From the sequence record PZ386980.1: DNA of 64,000 bases. One strand, given 5' to 3'. Below are positions 1 through 35,558 of this stretch, in pieces. This stretch comes from a phage. The position numbers and the translations under genes are program-made. Under the pieces are notes generated by a model that worked only from the letters and a program-made list of their open reading frames with translations, was not told the DNA's origin and searched no databases. Every line of letters starts with the position of its first letter. Positions within the stretch are counted from its first letter, which is position 1.

Positions 1-1
1 T

Positions 2-529
2 TCTGAACCAAAATTAATCTATGCTGCTAACATGATGACAGTTTCCACGAAATACGCTAAACGTAACAATAAAACTTTCGGTTGGATTCGTCGTAAACTC
101 TGGGAAATAGAAAAGAATAAAGAATTCTCCCAGGAGACACGAAAGAAAATGTCTGATGCAGTAGCTAATAAAGCAAGACTAACTTGTCCACATTGCGGTA
201 AGTCCGGATTAAGCGGGAATATGAATCGATGGCATTTTGATAACTGCCCGAATCACCCTAATCCTAAAGTTAGACCACCGATGTCTAAAGAACACAGAAA
301 TAATATCTCAAACGGGCTTAAAGCAATCATTCTTGAAGAAACATCCTGCGAATTCTGCGGAATGATAGGCAAGAAATGCGTTATTGCAGCGCATAGAAAT
401 TTCTGCAAGAAAAATCCAAATGGACGCAAGAAAACTGAAAAGACTGGTACTTGCGTCCATTGTGGTAAAGTTACCACTTTCGGAAATTTATCAAGGTGGC
501 ATAATGATAACTGTAAGCACAAACATTAA
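2..529 (+). CDS. Partial CDS (5' end probably outside window): zinc-knuckle repeat / NUMOD3-like DNA-binding protein, possibly the C-terminal region of a homing endonuclease
   Basis: ORF track 32..529; frame stays open upstream to nt 2; three copies of C-x2-C-G-x(8-12)-H-x(2-3)-C with SxE(T/H)RxxxS-like motifs between them; only plus-strand gene in a minus-strand early block. Confidence 0.5.
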   Translation, partial: SEPKLIYAANMMTVSTKYAKRNNKTFGWIRRKLWEIEKNKEFSQETRKKMSDAVANKARLTCPHCGKSGLSGNMNRWHFDNCPNHPNPKVRPPMSKEHRNNISNGLKAIILEETSCEFCGMIGKKCVIAAHRNFCKKNPNGRKKTEKTGTCVHCGKVTTFGNLSRWHNDNCKHKH

Positions 530-2214
530 TTAATAGTGGCAACACTAAATCTACCAACTTTTTCCATTTTAATATGCTGTCCATAATCCTGCGGATCATG
601 GTCTTTATGCGAAATTATGAAGAAGTTGGTATCCTTCAAACCATCTAAAATTTTAGCTACATTTTTAATGCCTTCAGCATCAAATGCACCGTCATACACT
701 TCATCAAGAAATAAACAACTTATTTTAACACCTGAAACTTTTTCAGCAATATCACGCCAAGTAAATAAAAGAGCAATATCAATTCGCGCTTTTTCACCTT
801 GACTGAATGAAGCATAACTAAAATCTTCACGACCACGGGATTTAATTGTCTCATTAAATTCTTCATCTAATGTAAACACATAATCCGCTTCCATTATTTT
901 AAGATAATGGTTAATCTGCTTATTAAATAATGGAATGTACTTTTTAATAATAGCACCTTTAATACCAGAATCTTTGAGCATATCAGTCAAAATTCCTCGG
1001 TGGTATTTTTCCATTACTAAATTAGTTTTTGTCTTAACAATTTTATCAAGTTCTTCTTGAAGCAGTGCTATTTCATCAGCATGGTCAATAAACTCAGAAG
1101 ATGCTTTTTCTATAGCTGCTTTAACTTTTTTAGCTTTATCTACCGTCGTGATTAGAGATTGCTTTTTATTGCGAATATCATTTGCCAACGACTGCTGAGT
1201 TTTAATATTATCTCGGTATTCATCAACAAGAACTTTTAAATTATCACGGTGTGTTGAAAGCTGTTCAAACGAATGCGTACATTCAGAAACTTTATCTTTA
1301 ATTTTAGAAACAACTTTATCACCGGAACTTAATTGTGACAAACAGGTTGGACATAATCCACCTTCGTGATACATATTAATGACTTTATTATACGAGTCAA
1401 TTTTTGATTTAATTAAAACTGCTTCTTGACCGATTTTATTAAACGCATCAGTCGGATCTTCATCCAAAACAATATTAACTAATCTTTCATTAGCTTCTTC
1501 TATTTCCGATTTTAGCGTTCTAGCTTCTTTTGCCAAATCATCATACATATTTTGCAGACGAGTAAGATTGTCACCCGTTAATTTTTTCTGGCGTTCAACG
1601 TTATCATTATATATTTTAATTTGTTGGATAATACTATCTTTTTTAACATCAAGCACTTGGTTCTGCGAATTTAATTCACGTATTAGTGCTTTATTAAGCT
1701 TATCCATTTCAGCTAATGTTCCTACCTCAAGCAGGTCTTCCACAAGCTTTCTTCGTGCAGGGGTCGACAAACCCATGAAAGGGGTATACCCTGCTGTACC
1801 AAGGACAACAATCTGCTTGAAACTGGCATATGACATTCCGATAAGCTGTTCAAATTCTGCTTGGAAATCTTTACTGCTGGCAGATTCATTAAGACGTGTA
1901 CCGTTAACGGTGATTTCGAAAACGTTTGGTTTTTGTCCTCTTTTGATATAGTACTTTTTCTCATCATATTCCATCCACAGTTCAACTAAAAGTTCTTTCT
2001 TATTTGTGCTGTTTATTAATTGACCTTTCTTTACATCACGAAATGGCTTACCAAAAAGCCCAAATGTGATGGCTTCTAACATAGTAGACTTACCACCGCC
2101 ATTTCGTCCAGTAATAAGAGTTTTTTGAACCTTATCTAATTGAATGTCAACTCCATTTTGACCAACTGACATTATATTTTTATATTTTACTCTATTAAGT
2201 TTAAATGATTTCAT
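526..2214 (-). CDS. 46: Recombination endonuclease subunit gp46 (Rad50/SbcC-like ATPase)
   Basis: 562 aa; N-terminal Walker A GRNGGGKST, long central coiled coil; matches recalled T4 gp46; directly downstream of gene 47. Confidence 0.92.
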   Translation of the reverse strand: MKSFKLNRVKYKNIMSVGQNGVDIQLDKVQKTLITGRNGGGKSTMLEAITFGLFGKPFRDVKKGQLINSTNKKELLVELWMEYDEKKYYIKRGQKPNVFEITVNGTRLNESASSKDFQAEFEQLIGMSYASFKQIVVLGTAGYTPFMGLSTPARRKLVEDLLEVGTLAEMDKLNKALIRELNSQNQVLDVKKDSIIQQIKIYNDNVERQKKLTGDNLTRLQNMYDDLAKEARTLKSEIEEANERLVNIVLDEDPTDAFNKIGQEAVLIKSKIDSYNKVINMYHEGGLCPTCLSQLSSGDKVVSKIKDKVSECTHSFEQLSTHRDNLKVLVDEYRDNIKTQQSLANDIRNKKQSLITTVDKAKKVKAAIEKASSEFIDHADEIALLQEELDKIVKTKTNLVMEKYHRGILTDMLKDSGIKGAIIKKYIPLFNKQINHYLKIMEADYVFTLDEEFNETIKSRGREDFSYASFSQGEKARIDIALLFTWRDIAEKVSGVKISCLFLDEVYDGAFDAEGIKNVAKILDGLKDTNFFIISHKDHDPQDYGQHIKMEKVGRFSVATIN

Positions 2215-2229
2215 TTTGTATCCAATTGT

Positions 2230-2550
2230 TCACAATGAAGAAAATTCTTTAACTAAAGCCTGTAATGAAGCCTCTATTGGATATCCATTCTTAACTAACA
2301 TTTTCCTAAACATTACATGTTTAGGACGATTATATGATATCCACAATTCATACAATTTATCTTTATTATCCCAATGATAGCCTTTTCGTCGAGATGCTAT
2401 ATGAGCTTTTCTAATCTCCGGATTTTTCCAACTAGCAGCTACTGAATTTGATATAGCTATTTTATATTCAGGTTTTGATAAAGCAGCACGAACAGCCTTT
2501 TGGTGTTTAATTTTATTTTCTTCGTTATTAAACCATTCCCTTGAAGCCAT
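2230..2550 (-). CDS. HNH homing endonuclease, C-terminal DNA-binding portion (second ORF overlapping the catalytic ORF; possible frameshift or decayed gene)
   Basis: 106-aa ORF overlapping 2457..2550 of the upstream HNH ORF in another frame; basic, NUMOD-like repeats (KIKHQKAVRAALSKPEYKIAISNSVAASWKNPEIRKAH). Confidence 0.45.
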   Translation of the reverse strand: MASREWFNNEENKIKHQKAVRAALSKPEYKIAISNSVAASWKNPEIRKAHIASRRKGYHWDNKDKLYELWISYNRPKHVMFRKMLVKNGYPIEASLQALVKEFSSL

Positions 2551-3083
2551 TGAAATTTTTGTTTTGTTTTAAAATTATTTAATCTTTCTTTATTATCTTT
2601 CCTATTTTTTGCTACTGAAAAATATTTTAATGCCCTTTCTCTAGCAGCATTTCTATTTTGCGGATTTGAATAATACTGTTGAAGCCTTTTTGATATTGTG
2701 TCACTTACATCTTGTTTTATAAAACTATATTCAGCAGCTATTAAATCAACTTCGGCTAAAGATAAATTTTTATATGTTTTTCCTGACATCATTCTATTTA
2801 AAGCATTTAGCATTTTTCCATTTTTACCTTTTGCTAATAAGAAGTGTGCTTTAAAATGATTAAAATGACTTAAATTAACTAAATTCCATGTAGATTTTAA
2901 ATATTCAGGAAATATTGATTTAGGAAGCACGTGGTGTGCTTCCGTTTTACCTGGAGTTTTAACAGTTGAATTCACAGAAATAAAATTAATGTAAGACTTG
3001 GCGTCTTCTTCACTCAACGCTAATTTTTCAACTAATTCCTTTATTAAAAATTCATCATTAATGTCAAGTTTAAAATTCTTCAC
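2457..3083 (-). CDS. Freestanding HNH homing endonuclease (mob-like), N-terminal catalytic portion
   Basis: 208 aa; motif EAHHVLPKS...NLVNLSHFNHFKAH fits HNH (HH...N...N...H); GTG start overlapping TGA stop of the upstream ORF; basic C-terminal half. Confidence 0.6.
   Translation of the reverse strand: MKNFKLDINDEFLIKELVEKLALSEEDAKSYINFISVNSTVKTPGKTEAHHVLPKSIFPEYLKSTWNLVNLSHFNHFKAHFLLAKGKNGKMLNALNRMMSGKTYKNLSLAEVDLIAAEYSFIKQDVSDTISKRLQQYYSNPQNRNAARERALKYFSVAKNRKDNKERLNNFKTKQKFQWLQGNGLITKKIKLNTKRLFVLLYQNLNIK
3048..3067. repeat. Direct repeat copy A (aaattcatcattaatgtcaa) at the 5' end of the HNH ORF
   Basis: 20-nt perfect match to 3251..3270, similarity extends about 16 nt further; gives both ORFs a shared DINDEF N-terminal peptide. 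Confidence 0.8.
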
Positions 3084-31695: not shown

Positions 31696-32282
31696 TGCAT
31701 TCCAATCACAAAAAATTGAGGACGAACTGTTTCACCTGTTTCAGCATTATAGCTTCGACAACAGTGTTGTACCGTTTTAATATGGATATTGTAAATCTTA
31801 TCCATATCAGGAGCTTTAATAGGTTCGTCAATTATGTACAAGATACGAGAAAGCGATAACCCACGGAATTTATGACCTTCATTACCGATAAAACTACGGA
31901 CAGAATCAGTAAATAAACGGAATCGAATATCATCGCTAGAATAACGAGAAAATTCTTTTTCAATGTTGCCAGCAGAAATTTTAGCGTAAGCTGAAGTATT
32001 AGAAAGAACAATAACTGTTCCGCCATCATACAGCCAATTAGCAGCAAAGTTAGTCACAGCAATTGATTTACCGGATTGACGTCCACCATCTATACGAAGT
32101 GTGCAGTACTGTTTGAGCACATCTTCCATTGGTGGAAGATAATCATTCTTACAAATTTCTTCTACTCTAGCATCAGAATGGTGTGTAAAAGCATTCATCA
32201 GGGATAGATAAGGACCAGTTAAAAATGTTCTCATTTTATTCTCTCTAAGTTTGGGCCATTCCGTGGCGCATGAATTGTCCAT
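31692..32282 (-). CDS. Small P-loop NTPase
   Basis: Walker A GGRQSGKS and Walker B ILYIIDE. Confidence 0.55.
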   Translation of the reverse strand: MDNSCATEWPKLRENKMRTFLTGPYLSLMNAFTHHSDARVEEICKNDYLPPMEDVLKQYCTLRIDGGRQSGKSIAVTNFAANWLYDGGTVIVLSNTSAYAKISAGNIEKEFSRYSSDDIRFRLFTDSVRSFIGNEGHKFRGLSLSRILYIIDEPIKAPDMDKIYNIHIKTVQHCCRSYNAETGETVRPQFFVIGMQ

Positions 32283-32375
32283 TTCTGTATTTACCCATTA
32301 CCGCACTTGGGCTCGACCTTATCACAGGTTGGCGGGAATCCCTCATAGAATCATGAGGTCCAGGTTGTTCCCATA

Positions 32376-32849
32376 TTATTTGAACGATTTAACGTACTGA
32401 ATAGAACCCTTACTATTCACAAAGGCAATTTTACCATTTTTATTATACATGGTAGCAGTACGCTGATAACCATAGGTTTGTTTACCAGATTGATAACCAA
32501 CTAATGCAAAATTATCTTCACCCATTTTATTCTGTTTAGCGCGAATGCGTTCATGACCATGTGCCATAAGAACCTTAGCATCACCAGTTGCAATGGATCG
32601 ACGAGTTTTTTCATCTTCAACTGCATTAACAAAGTCGTCAAATGAATCAAATTTAGCATGAGATTTATTATACAATTTTCCATCTACTGCATAATTATAT
32701 CCCTGTACATCCATCTCAACTTCTGTACCATCATCCAATACAGCAGTAATTTTTTGACCTTTTTTAAATTTCAAAAGATCAGTAAAAGATTCAGCAATAA
32801 TTTGAGAATTAATAGCTGCTTCAGTGATAAATTCTTGATATGTTTTCAT
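32376..32849 (-). CDS. Internal (head-packaged) protein with capsid-targeting sequence
   Basis: 157 aa; N-terminus MKTYQEFITEA matches the T4 internal-protein targeting pattern; lies upstream of denV rather than between denV and e. Confidence 0.7.
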   Translation of the reverse strand: MKTYQEFITEAAINSQIIAESFTDLLKFKKGQKITAVLDDGTEVEMDVQGYNYAVDGKLYNKSHAKFDSFDDFVNAVEDEKTRRSIATGDAKVLMAHGHERIRAKQNKMGEDNFALVGYQSGKQTYGYQRTATMYNKNGKIAFVNSKGSIQYVKSFK

Positions 32850-32858
32850 GGGTTTCCT

Positions 32859-33275
32859 TTAAATGTAAATATTTTTACCGTAATACTTATACCAATGTGG
32901 TTTCATTAAAATTTTTTCATCAAGTCGTTGTTGACTCAATTTAATAGCTGATTTGCATGGATTATAATCATTTTTCCATTCTATTGGAATATCGCTGATG
33001 TCAGGAACTTCAGTATCTTTTATACTGAACCCGCGTTTTAAGCATTCCGTTATAATGTCTAATTGACGCTTTCGCAAAAATTCTAACTTATCGTAAAAGA
33101 ACGTAACATGACCAGAACCTAAAATAAACTCGGAAGATATTTTAAAATCTTTAACGCGCTTACCGTTTGCCACATGCTTACGAACTATACCAAAAACACG
33201 CGGCAATTCACGGTATTCTGCGATTAAATGTTGATCAGCAAGTTCAGATACTAAAGTCAAATTAATACGAGTCAT
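32859..33275 (-). CDS. denV: Endonuclease V (pyrimidine-dimer DNA glycosylase)
   Basis: 138 aa; [29 protein letters not shown] matches recalled T4 DenV. Confidence 0.93.
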
Positions 33276-33297
33276 TTTATCCCTCCAAGTAACTGTG

Positions 33298-34303
<1,006 letters not shown>

Positions 34304-34322
<19 letters not shown>

Positions 34323-34792
34323 TCAGTGATAAAGTTATTTAAATTTTGAGTATATTTCTTTTCATCAAAAATCTTTTGTTGTCTGCGTAGCCGCCATGGC
34401 ATTTCAATGAACGTGTACCATATCCCAGATAATATTGCTGCAGTAAAAATATTAACAAGTATGGTTAAAAGAATCCAATCTCCTATTCTGTCCATTGGAT
34501 TTTTTATAAAAAAGTAAAATACGAATGATGTCACAGGAAGACTAATAATATACCACAGAATCATAATTTTATCTGTGAACCAATCAGCGTTCGTTAACTT
34601 AGCGCGACCATTATGAATACACACGAATTTATCATCTGTTATAATAGATGGCTTAGCTGCTTGATATCCCATTCTAAACTCCCTAATCAACAAATTTTTC
34701 ATATCTTCGGAACAACCATTCCAGTCAACTCTATCAACTGAAATGCCATCATCCCCATCATCTAAATCATACCAGCGAGTTTTTAAAATCAT
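34304..34792 (-). CDS. Membrane protein, CRK-tail family member
   Basis: 162 aa; two hydrophobic helices; ends FITECRKLK. Confidence 0.55.
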
Positions 34793-35163
34793 TTAATTTT
34801 CCTACAATCACTCACAAACTCTTCCATTGATTCTTTTTCAATATAAGACATGTAGCTATTATATTCCTTTAATTGTATTTTGTAATCTTTTTTTCTTTGC
34901 CAATTTATTTTAAAATTATCATAATGAAAATATAACATGGTACCAAAGAATGAAAATAATGAAATCGCTATAGTATAATGAAGTTCACTCCAAACTTCTA
35001 TTATATCTATTATACCGCTGACGTTACTACGGATGTTTAAAATAAGACAGTCAATTAACAATCCAAAAAGACTACCCGCAAGAGCTGCAGCCAACGCTAC
35101 AGCAAAAATTAAAAATGACTCAGGAAGAGAATATTTGACTTTATTTAGTTTTGGCTTTTGCAT
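34789..35163 (-). CDS. Membrane protein, CRK-tail family member
   Basis: 124 aa; two hydrophobic helices; ends FVSDCRKIK. Confidence 0.55.
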   Translation of the reverse strand: MQKPKLNKVKYSLPESFLIFAVALAAALAGSLFGLLIDCLILNIRSNVSGIIDIIEVWSELHYTIAISLFSFFGTMLYFHYDNFKINWQRKKDYKIQLKEYNSYMSYIEKESMEEFVSDCRKIK

Positions 35164-35558
35164 CGCGATTCCTTAACAAATTTCATAATTTCATCAAATT
35201 CATGCGCAGCAAGTTTAAGCTGATGTTCCTTTTTAATCTTTTTACACTGAGCTTTCCAATCACGTACACGTTTACGATAGTGTCTTCCTTGATACCAATA
35301 TCCTATCCAATTTATAGGTACTAATAAAAGCGGAACTACCAACGGAAGAATTAGTGTTGCTCCAAATATTGCACCAGATTCAATATCAGTCATAACGTCT
35401 ATAACCATTCCAGCAATCACCAGAATCACAAATGATACAACTACCACAGGACCTATTAACACATCAGTAGAAATTATCTGACGCTTTAATTCATACTTCA
35501 ACGGTTTACTTGGAAGGTATAGTGATGGTTTTGACATATTCTCTACATTCCTTAACAA
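35145..35558 (-). CDS. Membrane protein, CRK-tail family member
   Basis: 137 aa; two hydrophobic helices; ends KFVKESRCKSQN. Confidence 0.55.
   Translation of the reverse strand: MLRNVENMSKPSLYLPSKPLKYELKRQIISTDVLIGPVVVVSFVILVIAGMVIDVMTDIESGAIFGATLILPLVVPLLLVPINWIGYWYQGRHYRKRVRDWKAQCKKIKKEHQLKLAAHEFDEIMKFVKESRCKSQN

Follow-up and report, generated by a model that had tools for sequence, protein, structure and literature searches.

A probable free-standing HNH homing endonuclease gene of the Mob type, with predicted I-TevIII-type zinc fingers, beside gene 46 of phage RB51

The RB51ORF057 locus

The window (the whole stretch of 64,000 nt that was analysed) corresponds to positions 32146-96145 of the phage RB51 record NC_012635, and the 2300 nt that we compared are 100% identical to RB51 32146-34445. 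At its left edge, a reading frame on the plus strand is open over 175 codons (2-529) and ends at a TAA at 527-529. These are the C-terminal 175 codons of a 237-amino-acid protein, RB51ORF057 (also RB32ORF054w), the first 62 codons of which lie outside the window (NC_012635 31961-32145). The ATG is 185 nt 5' of window position 1 and is preceded by AAGGA; a start at the window ATG at nt 32 was rejected, as that codon is the internal Met73. Residues are numbered throughout on the full-length protein, with residue n at window nt 2+3(n-63).

Gene 46 lies on the minus strand at 526-2214. Because the plus-strand frame runs to 529, the two convergent stop codons overlap by 4 nt in the palindrome TTAA. 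Genes 43, regA, 62, 44, 45, rpbA, 45.2, 46, 46.1, 46.2, 47 and a-gt are all on the minus strand in the RB51 record. An earlier reading of the window (the original prediction) had singled out a plus-strand frame among minus-strand neighbours that converges on the gene 46 stop, and on both points it was right. The features discussed below are as follows.

2..529, plus strand: predicted HNH homing endonuclease gene RB51ORF057 / RB32ORF054w, residues 63-237 and stop (translation, RB51 record, PHROG 655)
128..154, plus strand: NUMOD3-like motif 1, SQETRKKMS (residues 105-113, N-terminal end of predicted helix 106-117) (Pfam NUMOD3, sub-threshold)
185..247, plus strand: predicted zinc finger 1, CX2CX12HX3C, with C124, C127, H140 and C144 (sequence, alignment, AF2 model)
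284..310, plus strand: NUMOD3-like motif 2, SKEHRNNIS (residues 157-165, N-terminal end of predicted helix 158-170) (sequence, alignment columns)
347..406, plus strand: predicted zinc finger 2, CX2CX11HX3C, with C178, C181, H193 and C197, followed by the linker KKNPN (alignment with I-TevIII)
452..514, plus strand: predicted zinc finger 3, CX2CX12HX3C, with C213, C216, H229 and C233 (67-sequence alignment, I-TevIII alignment)
526..529, no strand assigned: TTAA, overlapping convergent stops, formed by the endonuclease TAA (527-529, plus) and the gene 46 TTA (526-528, read on the minus strand)
526..600, minus strand: gene 46 3' end beside the insertion, with substitutions between carriers and non-carriers of the gene (sequence comparison)

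We rejected a chance antisense frame opposite an early transcript, because the protein belongs to a homing endonuclease family: PHROG 655 ('homing endonuclease') is matched at 2.3e-23 by the window fragment on its own and at 2e-68 by the full protein, and 2304 database proteins match at E<=1e-5. RefSeq annotates the gene as "homing endonuclease, similar to mobB". It is a known selfish mobile element that is already annotated, and not a new kind of gene.

A predicted HNH nuclease domain encoded mostly outside the window

The original prediction had suggested that a catalytic domain of the GIY-YIG or HNH type may lie just beyond the window edge. Translation of the upstream frame met no early in-frame stop, and the 62 upstream codons do encode a catalytic motif, of the HNH type: residues 1-62 contain ESHHIIPRC..G..D..N41..L..EH50..AH54, in which E24, H26, H27, N41, H50 and H54 are all intact. 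The 67-sequence family alignment is invariant at these six positions and at P30, G35 and L45. A profile built from this alignment and compared with the PDB matches the HNH motif of Escherichia coli McrA (6ghc; E=3.9e-4), as well as Cas8-HNH, IscB and a group II intron maturase in their HNH regions.

Pfam HNH is matched by 42 of the 67 family members, and RB51ORF057 itself reaches 17.0 bits, below the curated cut-off of 21.4. Pfam and NCBIfam scans with the fragment and the full protein gave sub-threshold matches only (HNH, NUMOD3, Lar_restr_allev and the IscB HNH region), and a single-sequence search of the PDB with RB51ORF057 yielded no significant match.

An AF2 model was built for database protein P0001, which is 98% identical to the RB51 protein. 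Its mean pLDDT is 93 (97 in the HNH region), and the HNH motif is modelled as a strand at 24-27, a strand at 42-45 and a helix at 47-60. Foldseek comparison of the whole model with the PDB returned weak local HNH matches to Cas8-HNH and IscB (E 0.56-0.6, probability 0.30-0.87), the best E value (0.03) falling to proteins with arrays of C2H2 fingers in tandem, such as CTCF. We infer that residues ~1-95 form a Mob-type HNH (beta-beta-alpha-metal) nuclease domain with predicted activity.

A predicted DNA-binding region with zinc fingers and NUMOD3-like helices

The part of the protein encoded in the window is predicted from its sequence to bind DNA, through two helices that resemble NUMOD3 and three I-TevIII-type CCHC zinc fingers. 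All 12 putative zinc ligands are intact. The four ligands of zinc finger 3 are invariant across the 67-sequence alignment; zinc finger 1 is kept in close orthologues, and many distant family members have extra NUMOD3 repeats instead. Each Cys/His unit is modelled by AF2 as a beta-hairpin and a helix. Spacing and predicted fold together identify the units as probable I-TevIII-type fingers that would bind zinc, with the spacing of zinc finger 2 (CX2CX11HX3C) one residue below the published I-TevIII range of CX2CX12-13HX3C. A retroviral-type zinc knuckle was rejected because its spacing is wrong. The three Cys/His units described in the original prediction are all present, and 'zinc finger' is a more accurate name for them than 'knuckle'.

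The same prediction had the units alternating with SxE(T/H)RxxxS motifs. This is two-thirds true: there are only two such motifs, one before zinc finger 1 and one before zinc finger 2, and none ahead of zinc finger 3. Their proposed likeness to NUMOD3 is weak for the RB51 protein and clear for the family. Motif 1 matches Pfam NUMOD3 at E=0.011 and 16.1 bits in the fragment and at 12.6 bits in the full protein, both scores below the cut-off of 20.4, and motif 2 has no Pfam match of its own; 42 of the 67 aligned homologues match NUMOD3 in the same columns, the best at 1.7e-29. As the RB51 matches are sub-threshold and the homologues match in the same columns, the motifs are best named divergent NUMOD3-like helices.

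Distribution and insertion junctions

Genes of the RB51ORF057 type are present in 60 phage records, and ~590 records lack it and have an uninterrupted 45.2-46 junction with just a 55-nt spacer; carriers make up ~9% of Tequatrovirus-like records. The T4 spacer between 45.2 and 46 is 55 nt long and contains no open reading frame, and a 55-nt spacer also occupies the site in T2, SHFML-26, IsaacDaniel, AV122 and KMB22. The suggestion that a mobile gene has been inserted in what is the 45.2/rpbA region of T4 is borne out by the spacer and by the distribution of the gene.

The flanking genes differ between carriers and non-carriers. The adjacent 251 nt of gene 46 are at least 95% identical in 59 records and at most 81% identical in all others except the recombinant KMB22, and this flanking haplotype is linked to the endonuclease gene in 59 of 59 natural carriers. 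The gp46 C terminus reads ...GRFSVATIN* in RB51 and ...GRFTVMV* in T4. On the other side, 45.2 is 192 nt long and starts GTG-GCA in carriers, compared with 189 nt and an ATG start in non-carriers. We propose the gene 46 3' end (526..600), which contains substitutions between carriers and non-carriers, as a candidate part of a homing site that is disrupted or immune in RB51.

Orthologues with 42-64% protein identity lie at the same 45.2/46 junction in Mosigvirus ST0 and in the Klebsiella phages Roth67 and Squirrel_ER27. All three share the architecture of the RB51 protein (HNH, two NUMOD3-like motifs and three fingers) as well as the convergent orientation with an overlapping gene 46 stop. The ST0 orthologue is unannotated in its record. 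Comparison of ST0 with the non-carrier Mosigvirus G53 reveals the same junctions as in RB51: the left junction lies inside 45.2, with an extra Ala codon after the start, and the terminal codons of gene 46 are replaced. In this genus, gene 46 of carrier and non-carrier is identical up to the last three codons, so any 'immunity' substitutions there are minimal.

Close copies of the gene differ by 10-21 synonymous and 2-4 non-synonymous changes (dN/dS ~0.04-0.07), and the gene is under purifying selection. The Roth67 orthologue is interrupted by an in-frame stop and appears in its record as two genes. Such a stop is consistent with a selfish endonuclease gene that has entered its expected phase of decay.

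Expression signals

A T4-type late-promoter box, TATAAATA, lies 33 nt 5' of the RB51ORF057 ATG (NC_012635 31920-31927, outside the window). It is the sole copy on either strand in 10 kb (L001 4921-4928). The box is conserved 5' of the Roth67 and ST0 orthologues, and the Squirrel_ER27 orthologue has CTTAAATA where the others have TATAAATA. As a consensus match, we regard it as a putative late promoter. Between the box and the ribosome-binding site is a conserved leader, GTTTATCA...GC(T/A)GTATCA. A scan around the gene for sigma-70-like promoters found fewer sites than in shuffled controls and none positioned to drive RB51ORF057, and a scan for intrinsic terminators around RB51ORF057 found none.

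Proposed homing mechanism and alternative explanations

We consider RB51ORF057, of which the window holds the 3' two-thirds, to be a free-standing Mob-like HNH homing endonuclease gene, with a probability of roughly 0.8 that covers its predicted activity and homing mechanism. The gene would be transcribed late from its own TATAAATA promoter, giving a transcript antisense to early/middle transcription from 46 into 45.2. When RB51 and a relative without the gene infect the same cell, the enzyme would nick or cut the DNA of that relative, probably at or near the junction of the gene 46 3' end and the 46-45.2 spacer, the position to which the differences between carriers and non-carriers point. 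Recombinational repair would then copy the endonuclease gene, with some flanking sequence, from RB51 into the relative. The RB51 copy would be protected, the insertion having replaced the spacer and the last gene 46 codons. Cleavage may be either a single-strand nick, as by MobE, or a double-strand break made by a dimer, as by I-TevIII. A literature search by the locus tag of the gene found no experiment on its protein. One might expect an efficient homing element to be commoner than the ~9% of records in which the gene occurs, and this counts against homing.

That frequency also fits a gene that is defunct or domesticated, no longer homing and retained either because the insert supplies parts of the neighbouring genes or because its fingers serve only as a DNA-binding regulator. 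The junctions fit the former possibility, as the insert provides 45.2 with its GTG start, its extra Ala codon and its ribosome-binding region (hence 192 nt in carriers versus 189 nt), and the junction sequence encodes the gp46 C terminus, including the last codons and the stop. Embedded host-gene signals are a recognized retention route for such genes in T4 (PMC2988022), and the Roth67 copy is already broken. The conserved leader between promoter box and ribosome-binding site also speaks for a defunct or domesticated gene. As for a regulatory role, I-TevI doubles as an autorepressor. However, the HNH catalytic positions are intact together with all 12 zinc ligands, and dN/dS is ~0.05 over the whole protein, nuclease domain included. 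The distinct gene 46 haplotype is tightly linked to the gene in a manner that resembles co-conversion, and the presence of the same cassette and junctions in a different genus is easier to explain by active spread. We consider a defunct or domesticated gene unlikely.

Still less probable, in our view, is that the protein is a site-specific nuclease used mainly in competition between phages, damaging or excluding relatives or boosting recombination or replication, rather than propagating its own gene. The T6 homing endonuclease SegB is reported to promote the amplification of anti-defence loci (PMC13096335), and RB51ORF057 adjoins gene 46, an essential recombination nuclease gene that is present in all relatives. 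Yet competition would work through the molecular mechanism that homing uses, with identical signatures left in the sequence, so that the two are not separated by the present data; the searches of Pfam, NCBIfam and PHROG found endonuclease families only, and no defence or exclusion domain. A GIY-YIG (Seg-type) endonuclease like those of the T4 seg genes, the other catalytic type originally suggested, has next to no probability. Although NUMOD3 motifs and zinc fingers do occur in GIY-YIG enzymes such as I-TevI (PMC2988022), residues 1-62 carry the HNH motif and no GIY...YIG sequence, which refutes that reading, and no GIY-YIG family was matched in Pfam, NCBIfam, PHROG or PDB searches.

A more specific version of the homing reading can be offered tentatively, as one that we think more likely wrong than right. 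The gene would represent a distinct lineage, with a Mob-type HNH domain and three I-TevIII-type fingers, that homes specifically to the gene 46 3' end across several T4-like genera. It would be expressed only late, from the antisense-oriented late promoter, with the conserved leader possibly acting as an operator. In RB51 it would act with a second HNH gene, which flanks gene 46 at its opposite end, so that the entire gene 46 allele is carried along as cargo. The break repair on which homing depends itself requires gene 46.

Beyond its correct annotation the gene matters little, because annotations and counts already include it: it has been labelled a putative homing or site-specific endonuclease since the RB32 and RB51 genome records, and the published RB51 inventory contains two HNH genes, one of them mob-like (PMC2993671, Table 5). 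Our analysis adds that 'similar to mobB' is valid for the nuclease domain only, the DNA-binding half being of the I-TevIII zinc-finger type; that the insertion site and junctions are kept in at least four T4-like lineages; and that the likely target, judged from sequence comparison, is the gene 46 end and the 46-45.2 spacer. If active, the enzyme would bring a new specificity to the few characterized phage HNH homing enzymes and an additional marker-exclusion locus to crosses of RB51-type with T4-type phages.

Comparison with I-TevIII and the T4 Mob enzymes

I-TevIII of phage RB3 comes from the same host group, the T-even phages, but is encoded in the nrdB group I intron, whereas the RB51 gene is free-standing and intergenic. 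Both proteins have an HNH motif within approximately the first 50 residues and tandem C-terminal zinc fingers with a K-x-NPN linker between them. Fingers 2 and 3 of the RB51 protein align with I-TevIII fingers 1 (C211/C214) and 2 (C242/C245) at 38% identity over 63 amino acids, and RB51 finger 1 is 50% identical to I-TevIII finger 2 over 28 amino acids. I-TevIII has two fingers (CX2CX12-13HX3C), in contrast to the three fingers and additional NUMOD3-like helices of the RB51 protein. In I-TevIII, DNA binding and cleavage are both reduced when either finger is mutated (PMC1865063). RB51 residues H26, H27, N41 and H50 correspond to I-TevIII H26, H27, N39 and H48, and the substitutions H26A, H27A, N39A and H48A abolish cleavage by I-TevIII with binding kept (Robbins et al. 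2007, PMC1865063). The two N-terminal nuclease domains have no BLAST similarity, and the I-TevIII dimerization region (residues 194-241) has no demonstrated counterpart in the RB51 protein.

The nuclease domain resembles that of the Mob family, with which the protein shares PHROG 655 and an architecture in which a Mob-type HNH domain at the N terminus is followed by a C-terminal domain that varies. BLASTP identity to T4 MobB is 43% over residues 2-110 and to RB3 MobE 36% over residues 1-125, and Foldseek comparison of the RB51-family model with viral models (BFVD) matched T4 MobB at 5e-11 and T4 MobC at 2e-9. The C-terminal halves of the RB51 protein and MobB or MobE are unrelated, and MobB lacks CCHC fingers, in agreement with the published view that each Mob protein has its own specific C-terminal domain.

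Like the RB51 gene, the T4 mob genes are free-standing between conserved T4-like genes, and T4 MobE makes a strand-specific nick in T2 nrdB and causes co-conversion of flanking markers (Wilson & Edgell 2009, PMC2790892). By contrast, the RB51 gene is opposite in strand to its neighbours, and it appears to own a putative late promoter, whereas mobE is promoterless (PMC2790892). No T4 mob gene shares its insertion site between 45.2 and 46 (Table 1, PMC2988022).

An HNH endonuclease gene converging on gene 46

Over its first 2,300 nt the window matches positions 32146–34445 of Enterobacteria phage RB51 (NC_012635 / FJ839693) at 100% identity, and RB68 equally, so window position 1 corresponds to RB51 record position 32146. 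The plus-strand frame open at the window edge comprises 175 stop-free codons (window 2–529, closing with TAA at 527–529). In the public record it belongs to a gene of 714 nt and 237 amino acids (RB51ORF057 / RB32ORF054w; record 31961–32674) that starts 185 nt ahead of the window. As originally noted, it converges on gene 46, the two stop codons overlapping in TTAA at 526–529, and every annotated neighbouring gene, 43 through a-gt, lies on the minus strand. A chance reading frame is ruled out: the portion inside the window is by itself enough to match PHROG 655 ‘homing endonuclease’ at 2.3e-23. The full protein matches this family at 2e-68, and 2,304 database proteins match it at E ≤ 1e-5.

Principal features (residues are those of the full-length protein):
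Window 2214 down to 526, minus strand: gene 46, 562 aa
C124, C127, H140, C144, plus strand: zinc finger ZF1, CX2CX12HX3C
C178, C181, H193, C197, plus strand: zinc finger ZF2, CX2CX11HX3C
C213, C216, H229, C233, plus strand: zinc finger ZF3, CX2CX12HX3C

The 62 residues upstream of the window, MNYKLIYEKLISNAKSRKLDCYTESHHIIPRCLNGSDDASNLVDLTPEEHYVAHQLLVKIYP, contain an HNH motif and so place the catalytic domain just beyond the window edge, where it had been suspected; of the GIY-YIG/HNH assignment, the HNH part holds and the GIY-YIG part does not. Taken singly, the protein scores 17.0 bits against Pfam HNH, under the 21.4 cut-off, and its sole NCBIfam match is to the HNH region of IscB. In an alignment of 67 family members, 42 match Pfam HNH at E ≤ 0.01, and E24, H26, H27, P30, G35, N41, L45, H50 and H54 are invariant. 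The profile built from this alignment matches the HNH motif of McrA (6ghc; E = 3.9e-4) and also matches Cas8-HNH, a group II intron maturase and IscB. An AlphaFold2 model of a database protein that is 98% identical to the RB51 enzyme (mean pLDDT 93) has strands at 24–27 and 42–45 followed by a helix at 47–60, which is the expected beta-beta-alpha order. Foldseek matched viral models of T4 MobB (5e-11) and MobC (2e-9); whole-model searches against solved structures gave no informative match.

Translation places all three of the Cys/His units first described in the C-terminal half. They were thought to alternate with SxE(T/H)RxxxS motifs, which is true ahead of ZF1 (SQETRKKMS) and ZF2 (SKEHRNNIS), although there are two such motifs, not three. 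Their likeness to NUMOD3 is borne out in homologues, 42 of 67 of which match that domain (best 1.7e-29), but the RB51 protein itself falls under the Pfam cut-off. In many NUMOD3-matching homologues, additional NUMOD3 repeats take the place of ZF1 and ZF2, and ZF3 is the only finger invariant across the 67 sequences. In the AlphaFold2 model every finger is predicted to fold as a beta-hairpin followed by a helix, and each NUMOD3-like motif starts a predicted helix.

Insertion between 45.2 and gene 46

T4 has only a 55-nt spacer, without any gene, separating 45.2 from 46. Pairwise alignment reveals an RB51-specific block of ~720 nt at this position, and the site is empty, as in T4, in T2, SHFML-26, IsaacDaniel, AV122 and KMB22; the gene is thus an inserted one, as had been supposed of a mobile element. 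We found it in 60 records of the phage collection, 59 of them at ≥96.5% DNA identity. With the T4 45.2–46 junction as query, 591 records cover at least 80% of it, and some of the lowest-ranked of these are carriers of the insertion matched as two pieces.

Junction features (L001, RB51 locus; L003, T4; L008, Mosigvirus ST0; L013, Mosigvirus G53):
L001 4908–4919 (record 31907–31918, ~230 nt upstream of window position 1) and L008 2415–2430: start of 45.2 in carriers
L003 7259–7294 and L013 797–819: spacer inverted repeats

At the left junction, 45.2 is 192 nt long in carriers and starts with GTG-GCA (RB51-type) or ATG-GCG (ST0), whereas in non-carriers it is 189 nt long and starts with ATG-GAA. 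The mobile segment therefore supplies 45.2 with its initiation codon and one additional Ala codon, and this holds in two genera. At the right junction, gene 46 ends in GRFSVATIN* in RB51, GRFSLAKIS* in RB32-type carriers and GRFTVMV* in T4. In T4-type non-carriers the spacer has a perfect inverted repeat of 9 bp, AGAGATTAT...ATAATCTCT, that is missing in carriers, and the spacer of the non-carrier G53 has its own perfect 8-bp inverted repeat, GATGTGGT/ACCACATC. In early or middle transcripts these repeats may fold into a hairpin; alternatively, they may belong to the homing site. The two repeats are unlike in sequence and alike in position.

The insertion is linked to a distinct gene 46 haplotype. 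Over the 251 nt of gene 46 beside it, identity to RB51 is at least 95% in 59 records, 93.7% in one and at most 81% in all the others (441 of 501). The record at 93.7%, KMB22 (OR539217.1), lacks the endonuclease gene and is a natural recombinant (KMB22 locus L018, 1436–1600): it is T4-like across the 46–45.2 spacer and on into the 3′ end of gene 46 for ~65 nt, and RB51-like, nearly identical, through the remainder of the gene. It represents either a pre-invasion allele or loss of the endonuclease gene through recombination, and its breakpoint narrows the carrier-specific differences to the spacer and the ~12 terminal codons of gene 46. The linked flank is the pattern that co-conversion during homing would produce, although it falls short of proof.

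Orthologues in other lineages

Proteins 42–64% identical to the RB51 enzyme occur at the same locus, with the same convergent orientation and domain order, in Mosigvirus ST0 and in the Klebsiella phages Roth67 and Squirrel_ER27. Weaker relatives (≤38% identity) lie elsewhere in genomes, for example beside nrdA.

L008 2501–3211 (Mosigvirus ST0, NC_041990.1), between 45.2 and gene 46: intact orthologue, 236 aa, 59% identity
L007 2501–3235 (Klebsiella phage Roth67): orthologue with an in-frame TAG at the invariant W90 position

Comparison of ST0 with the non-carrier G53 repeats the Tequatrovirus junctions, with an additional Ala codon behind the 45.2 start and the last three codons of gene 46 swapped. 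The ST0 RefSeq record has no annotated feature at the orthologue. The Roth67 orthologue, which its annotation splits into two ‘homing endonuclease’ genes, is probably in decay.

Selection and expression

The gene is under purifying selection: close copies differ by 10–21 synonymous versus 2–4 non-synonymous changes (dN/dS ~0.04–0.07), which indicates that the protein is functional at present or was until recently. The T4 late-promoter consensus, TATAAATA, occurs once in the 10-kb region when both strands are scanned, at L001 4921–4928 on the plus strand, 33 nt ahead of the ATG. With ~1.7 copies expected per 10 kb by chance on both strands, chance is an unlikely reason for a single copy to fall just 5′ of the ORF and in the matching orientation. 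Both this box and the leader that follows it, GTTTATCA...GC(T/A)GTATCA, are also conserved ahead of the gene in Roth67 and ST0; in Squirrel_ER27 the sequence is CTTAAATA instead. A scan around the gene found no sigma-70-like promoter placed to serve it and no intrinsic terminator. From the placement and conservation of the box, and the lack of a suitable sigma-70-like promoter, we infer late expression.

L001 4929–4955, between TATAAATA and the ribosome-binding site, with equivalents in L007 and L008: leader

By analogy with autorepression by I-TevI, the leader could serve as an operator or other regulatory site; it could also act as an RNA element. It is conserved in RB51, Roth67 and ST0 despite protein identities of only ~60%.

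A second HNH gene and the Ac3 record

Window 2230–3083, minus strand, between gene 46 and 46.1: second HNH homing-endonuclease-like gene

This segment contains a 208-aa ORF (window 2457–3083, minus strand) with the HNH motif HHVLPK..N..H and a PHROG 655 match at 3.9e-36, and a 106-aa ORF in another frame (window 2230–2550, minus strand) that overlaps it by 94 nt, so that the gene looks frameshifted or split. As it lies on the opposite side, RB51 gene 46 has mobile endonuclease genes on both flanks; in T4, 46 and 46.1 are directly adjacent. Only 11 records extend through the segment. The RB51 annotation has no CDS for it, and the ORF059 and ORF060 tags are absent from the feature table.

Except for one block of 3.26 kb, the GenBank record of phage Ac3 (OK040907.1) is identical to RB51.

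L019 4967–8227 (Ac3 record 31966–35226), equivalent to window 1–3081 plus 180 nt upstream: divergent block

Beginning at codon 2 of the endonuclease gene, the block takes in gene 46 and stops where the second HNH ORF ends. It carries 836 substitutions, and every one that falls in the endonuclease gene or in gene 46 is synonymous. Third codon positions account for 358 of 423 counted changes in gene 46, and the endonuclease gene has a GC content of 48%, against 36% in RB51. Natural divergence is ruled out by so many substitutions with the 237-aa endonuclease and 562-aa gp46 unchanged and the flanks identical to RB51. The block looks like deliberate codon recoding or synthetic-construct contamination of the assembly.

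Proposed mechanism and comparison with known systems

The RB51 gene is a known kind of element, already annotated in the record as a homing endonuclease, ‘similar to mobB, putative site-specific intron-like DNA endonuclease’. A published inventory credits RB51 with one mob-like HNH gene and one other HNH gene (Petrov et al. 2010, PMC2993671, Table 5), and our literature search found no experimental work on the endonuclease gene. Drawing on MobE (PMC2790892), I-TevIII (PMC1865063) and the T4 homing literature (PMC2988022), we propose that the enzyme would act late in mixed infections, using its zinc fingers and NUMOD3-like helices to bind the DNA of a phage without the gene at the spacer and the conserved gene 46 end. 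Near the bound site the HNH domain would then either nick, as MobE does, or make a double-strand break as a dimer, as I-TevIII does, and recombination-dependent repair would copy the endonuclease gene and its flanks. RB51 would be immune to its own enzyme because the insertion replaces the site.

Known relatives resemble the RB51 enzyme in different halves. Likeness to T4 MobB is confined to residues 2–110 (43% identity), and the C-terminal half of MobB, unlike that of the RB51 enzyme, has no CCHC fingers. RB3 MobE likewise shows N-terminal likeness only (36% identity over residues 1–125). In phage RB3, I-TevIII has two zinc fingers, and these align with the C-terminal 63 residues of the RB51 protein, which hold ZF2 and ZF3 (38% identity); a K-x-NPN linker inside the aligned region is common to both. 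I-TevIII makes a double-strand break as a dimer (PMC1865063). Its fingers are described as CX2CX12-13HX3C motifs, and mutation of either reduces both DNA binding and cleavage, whereas H26A, H27A, N39A and H48A abolish cleavage and leave binding intact (Robbins et al. 2007, PMC1865063).
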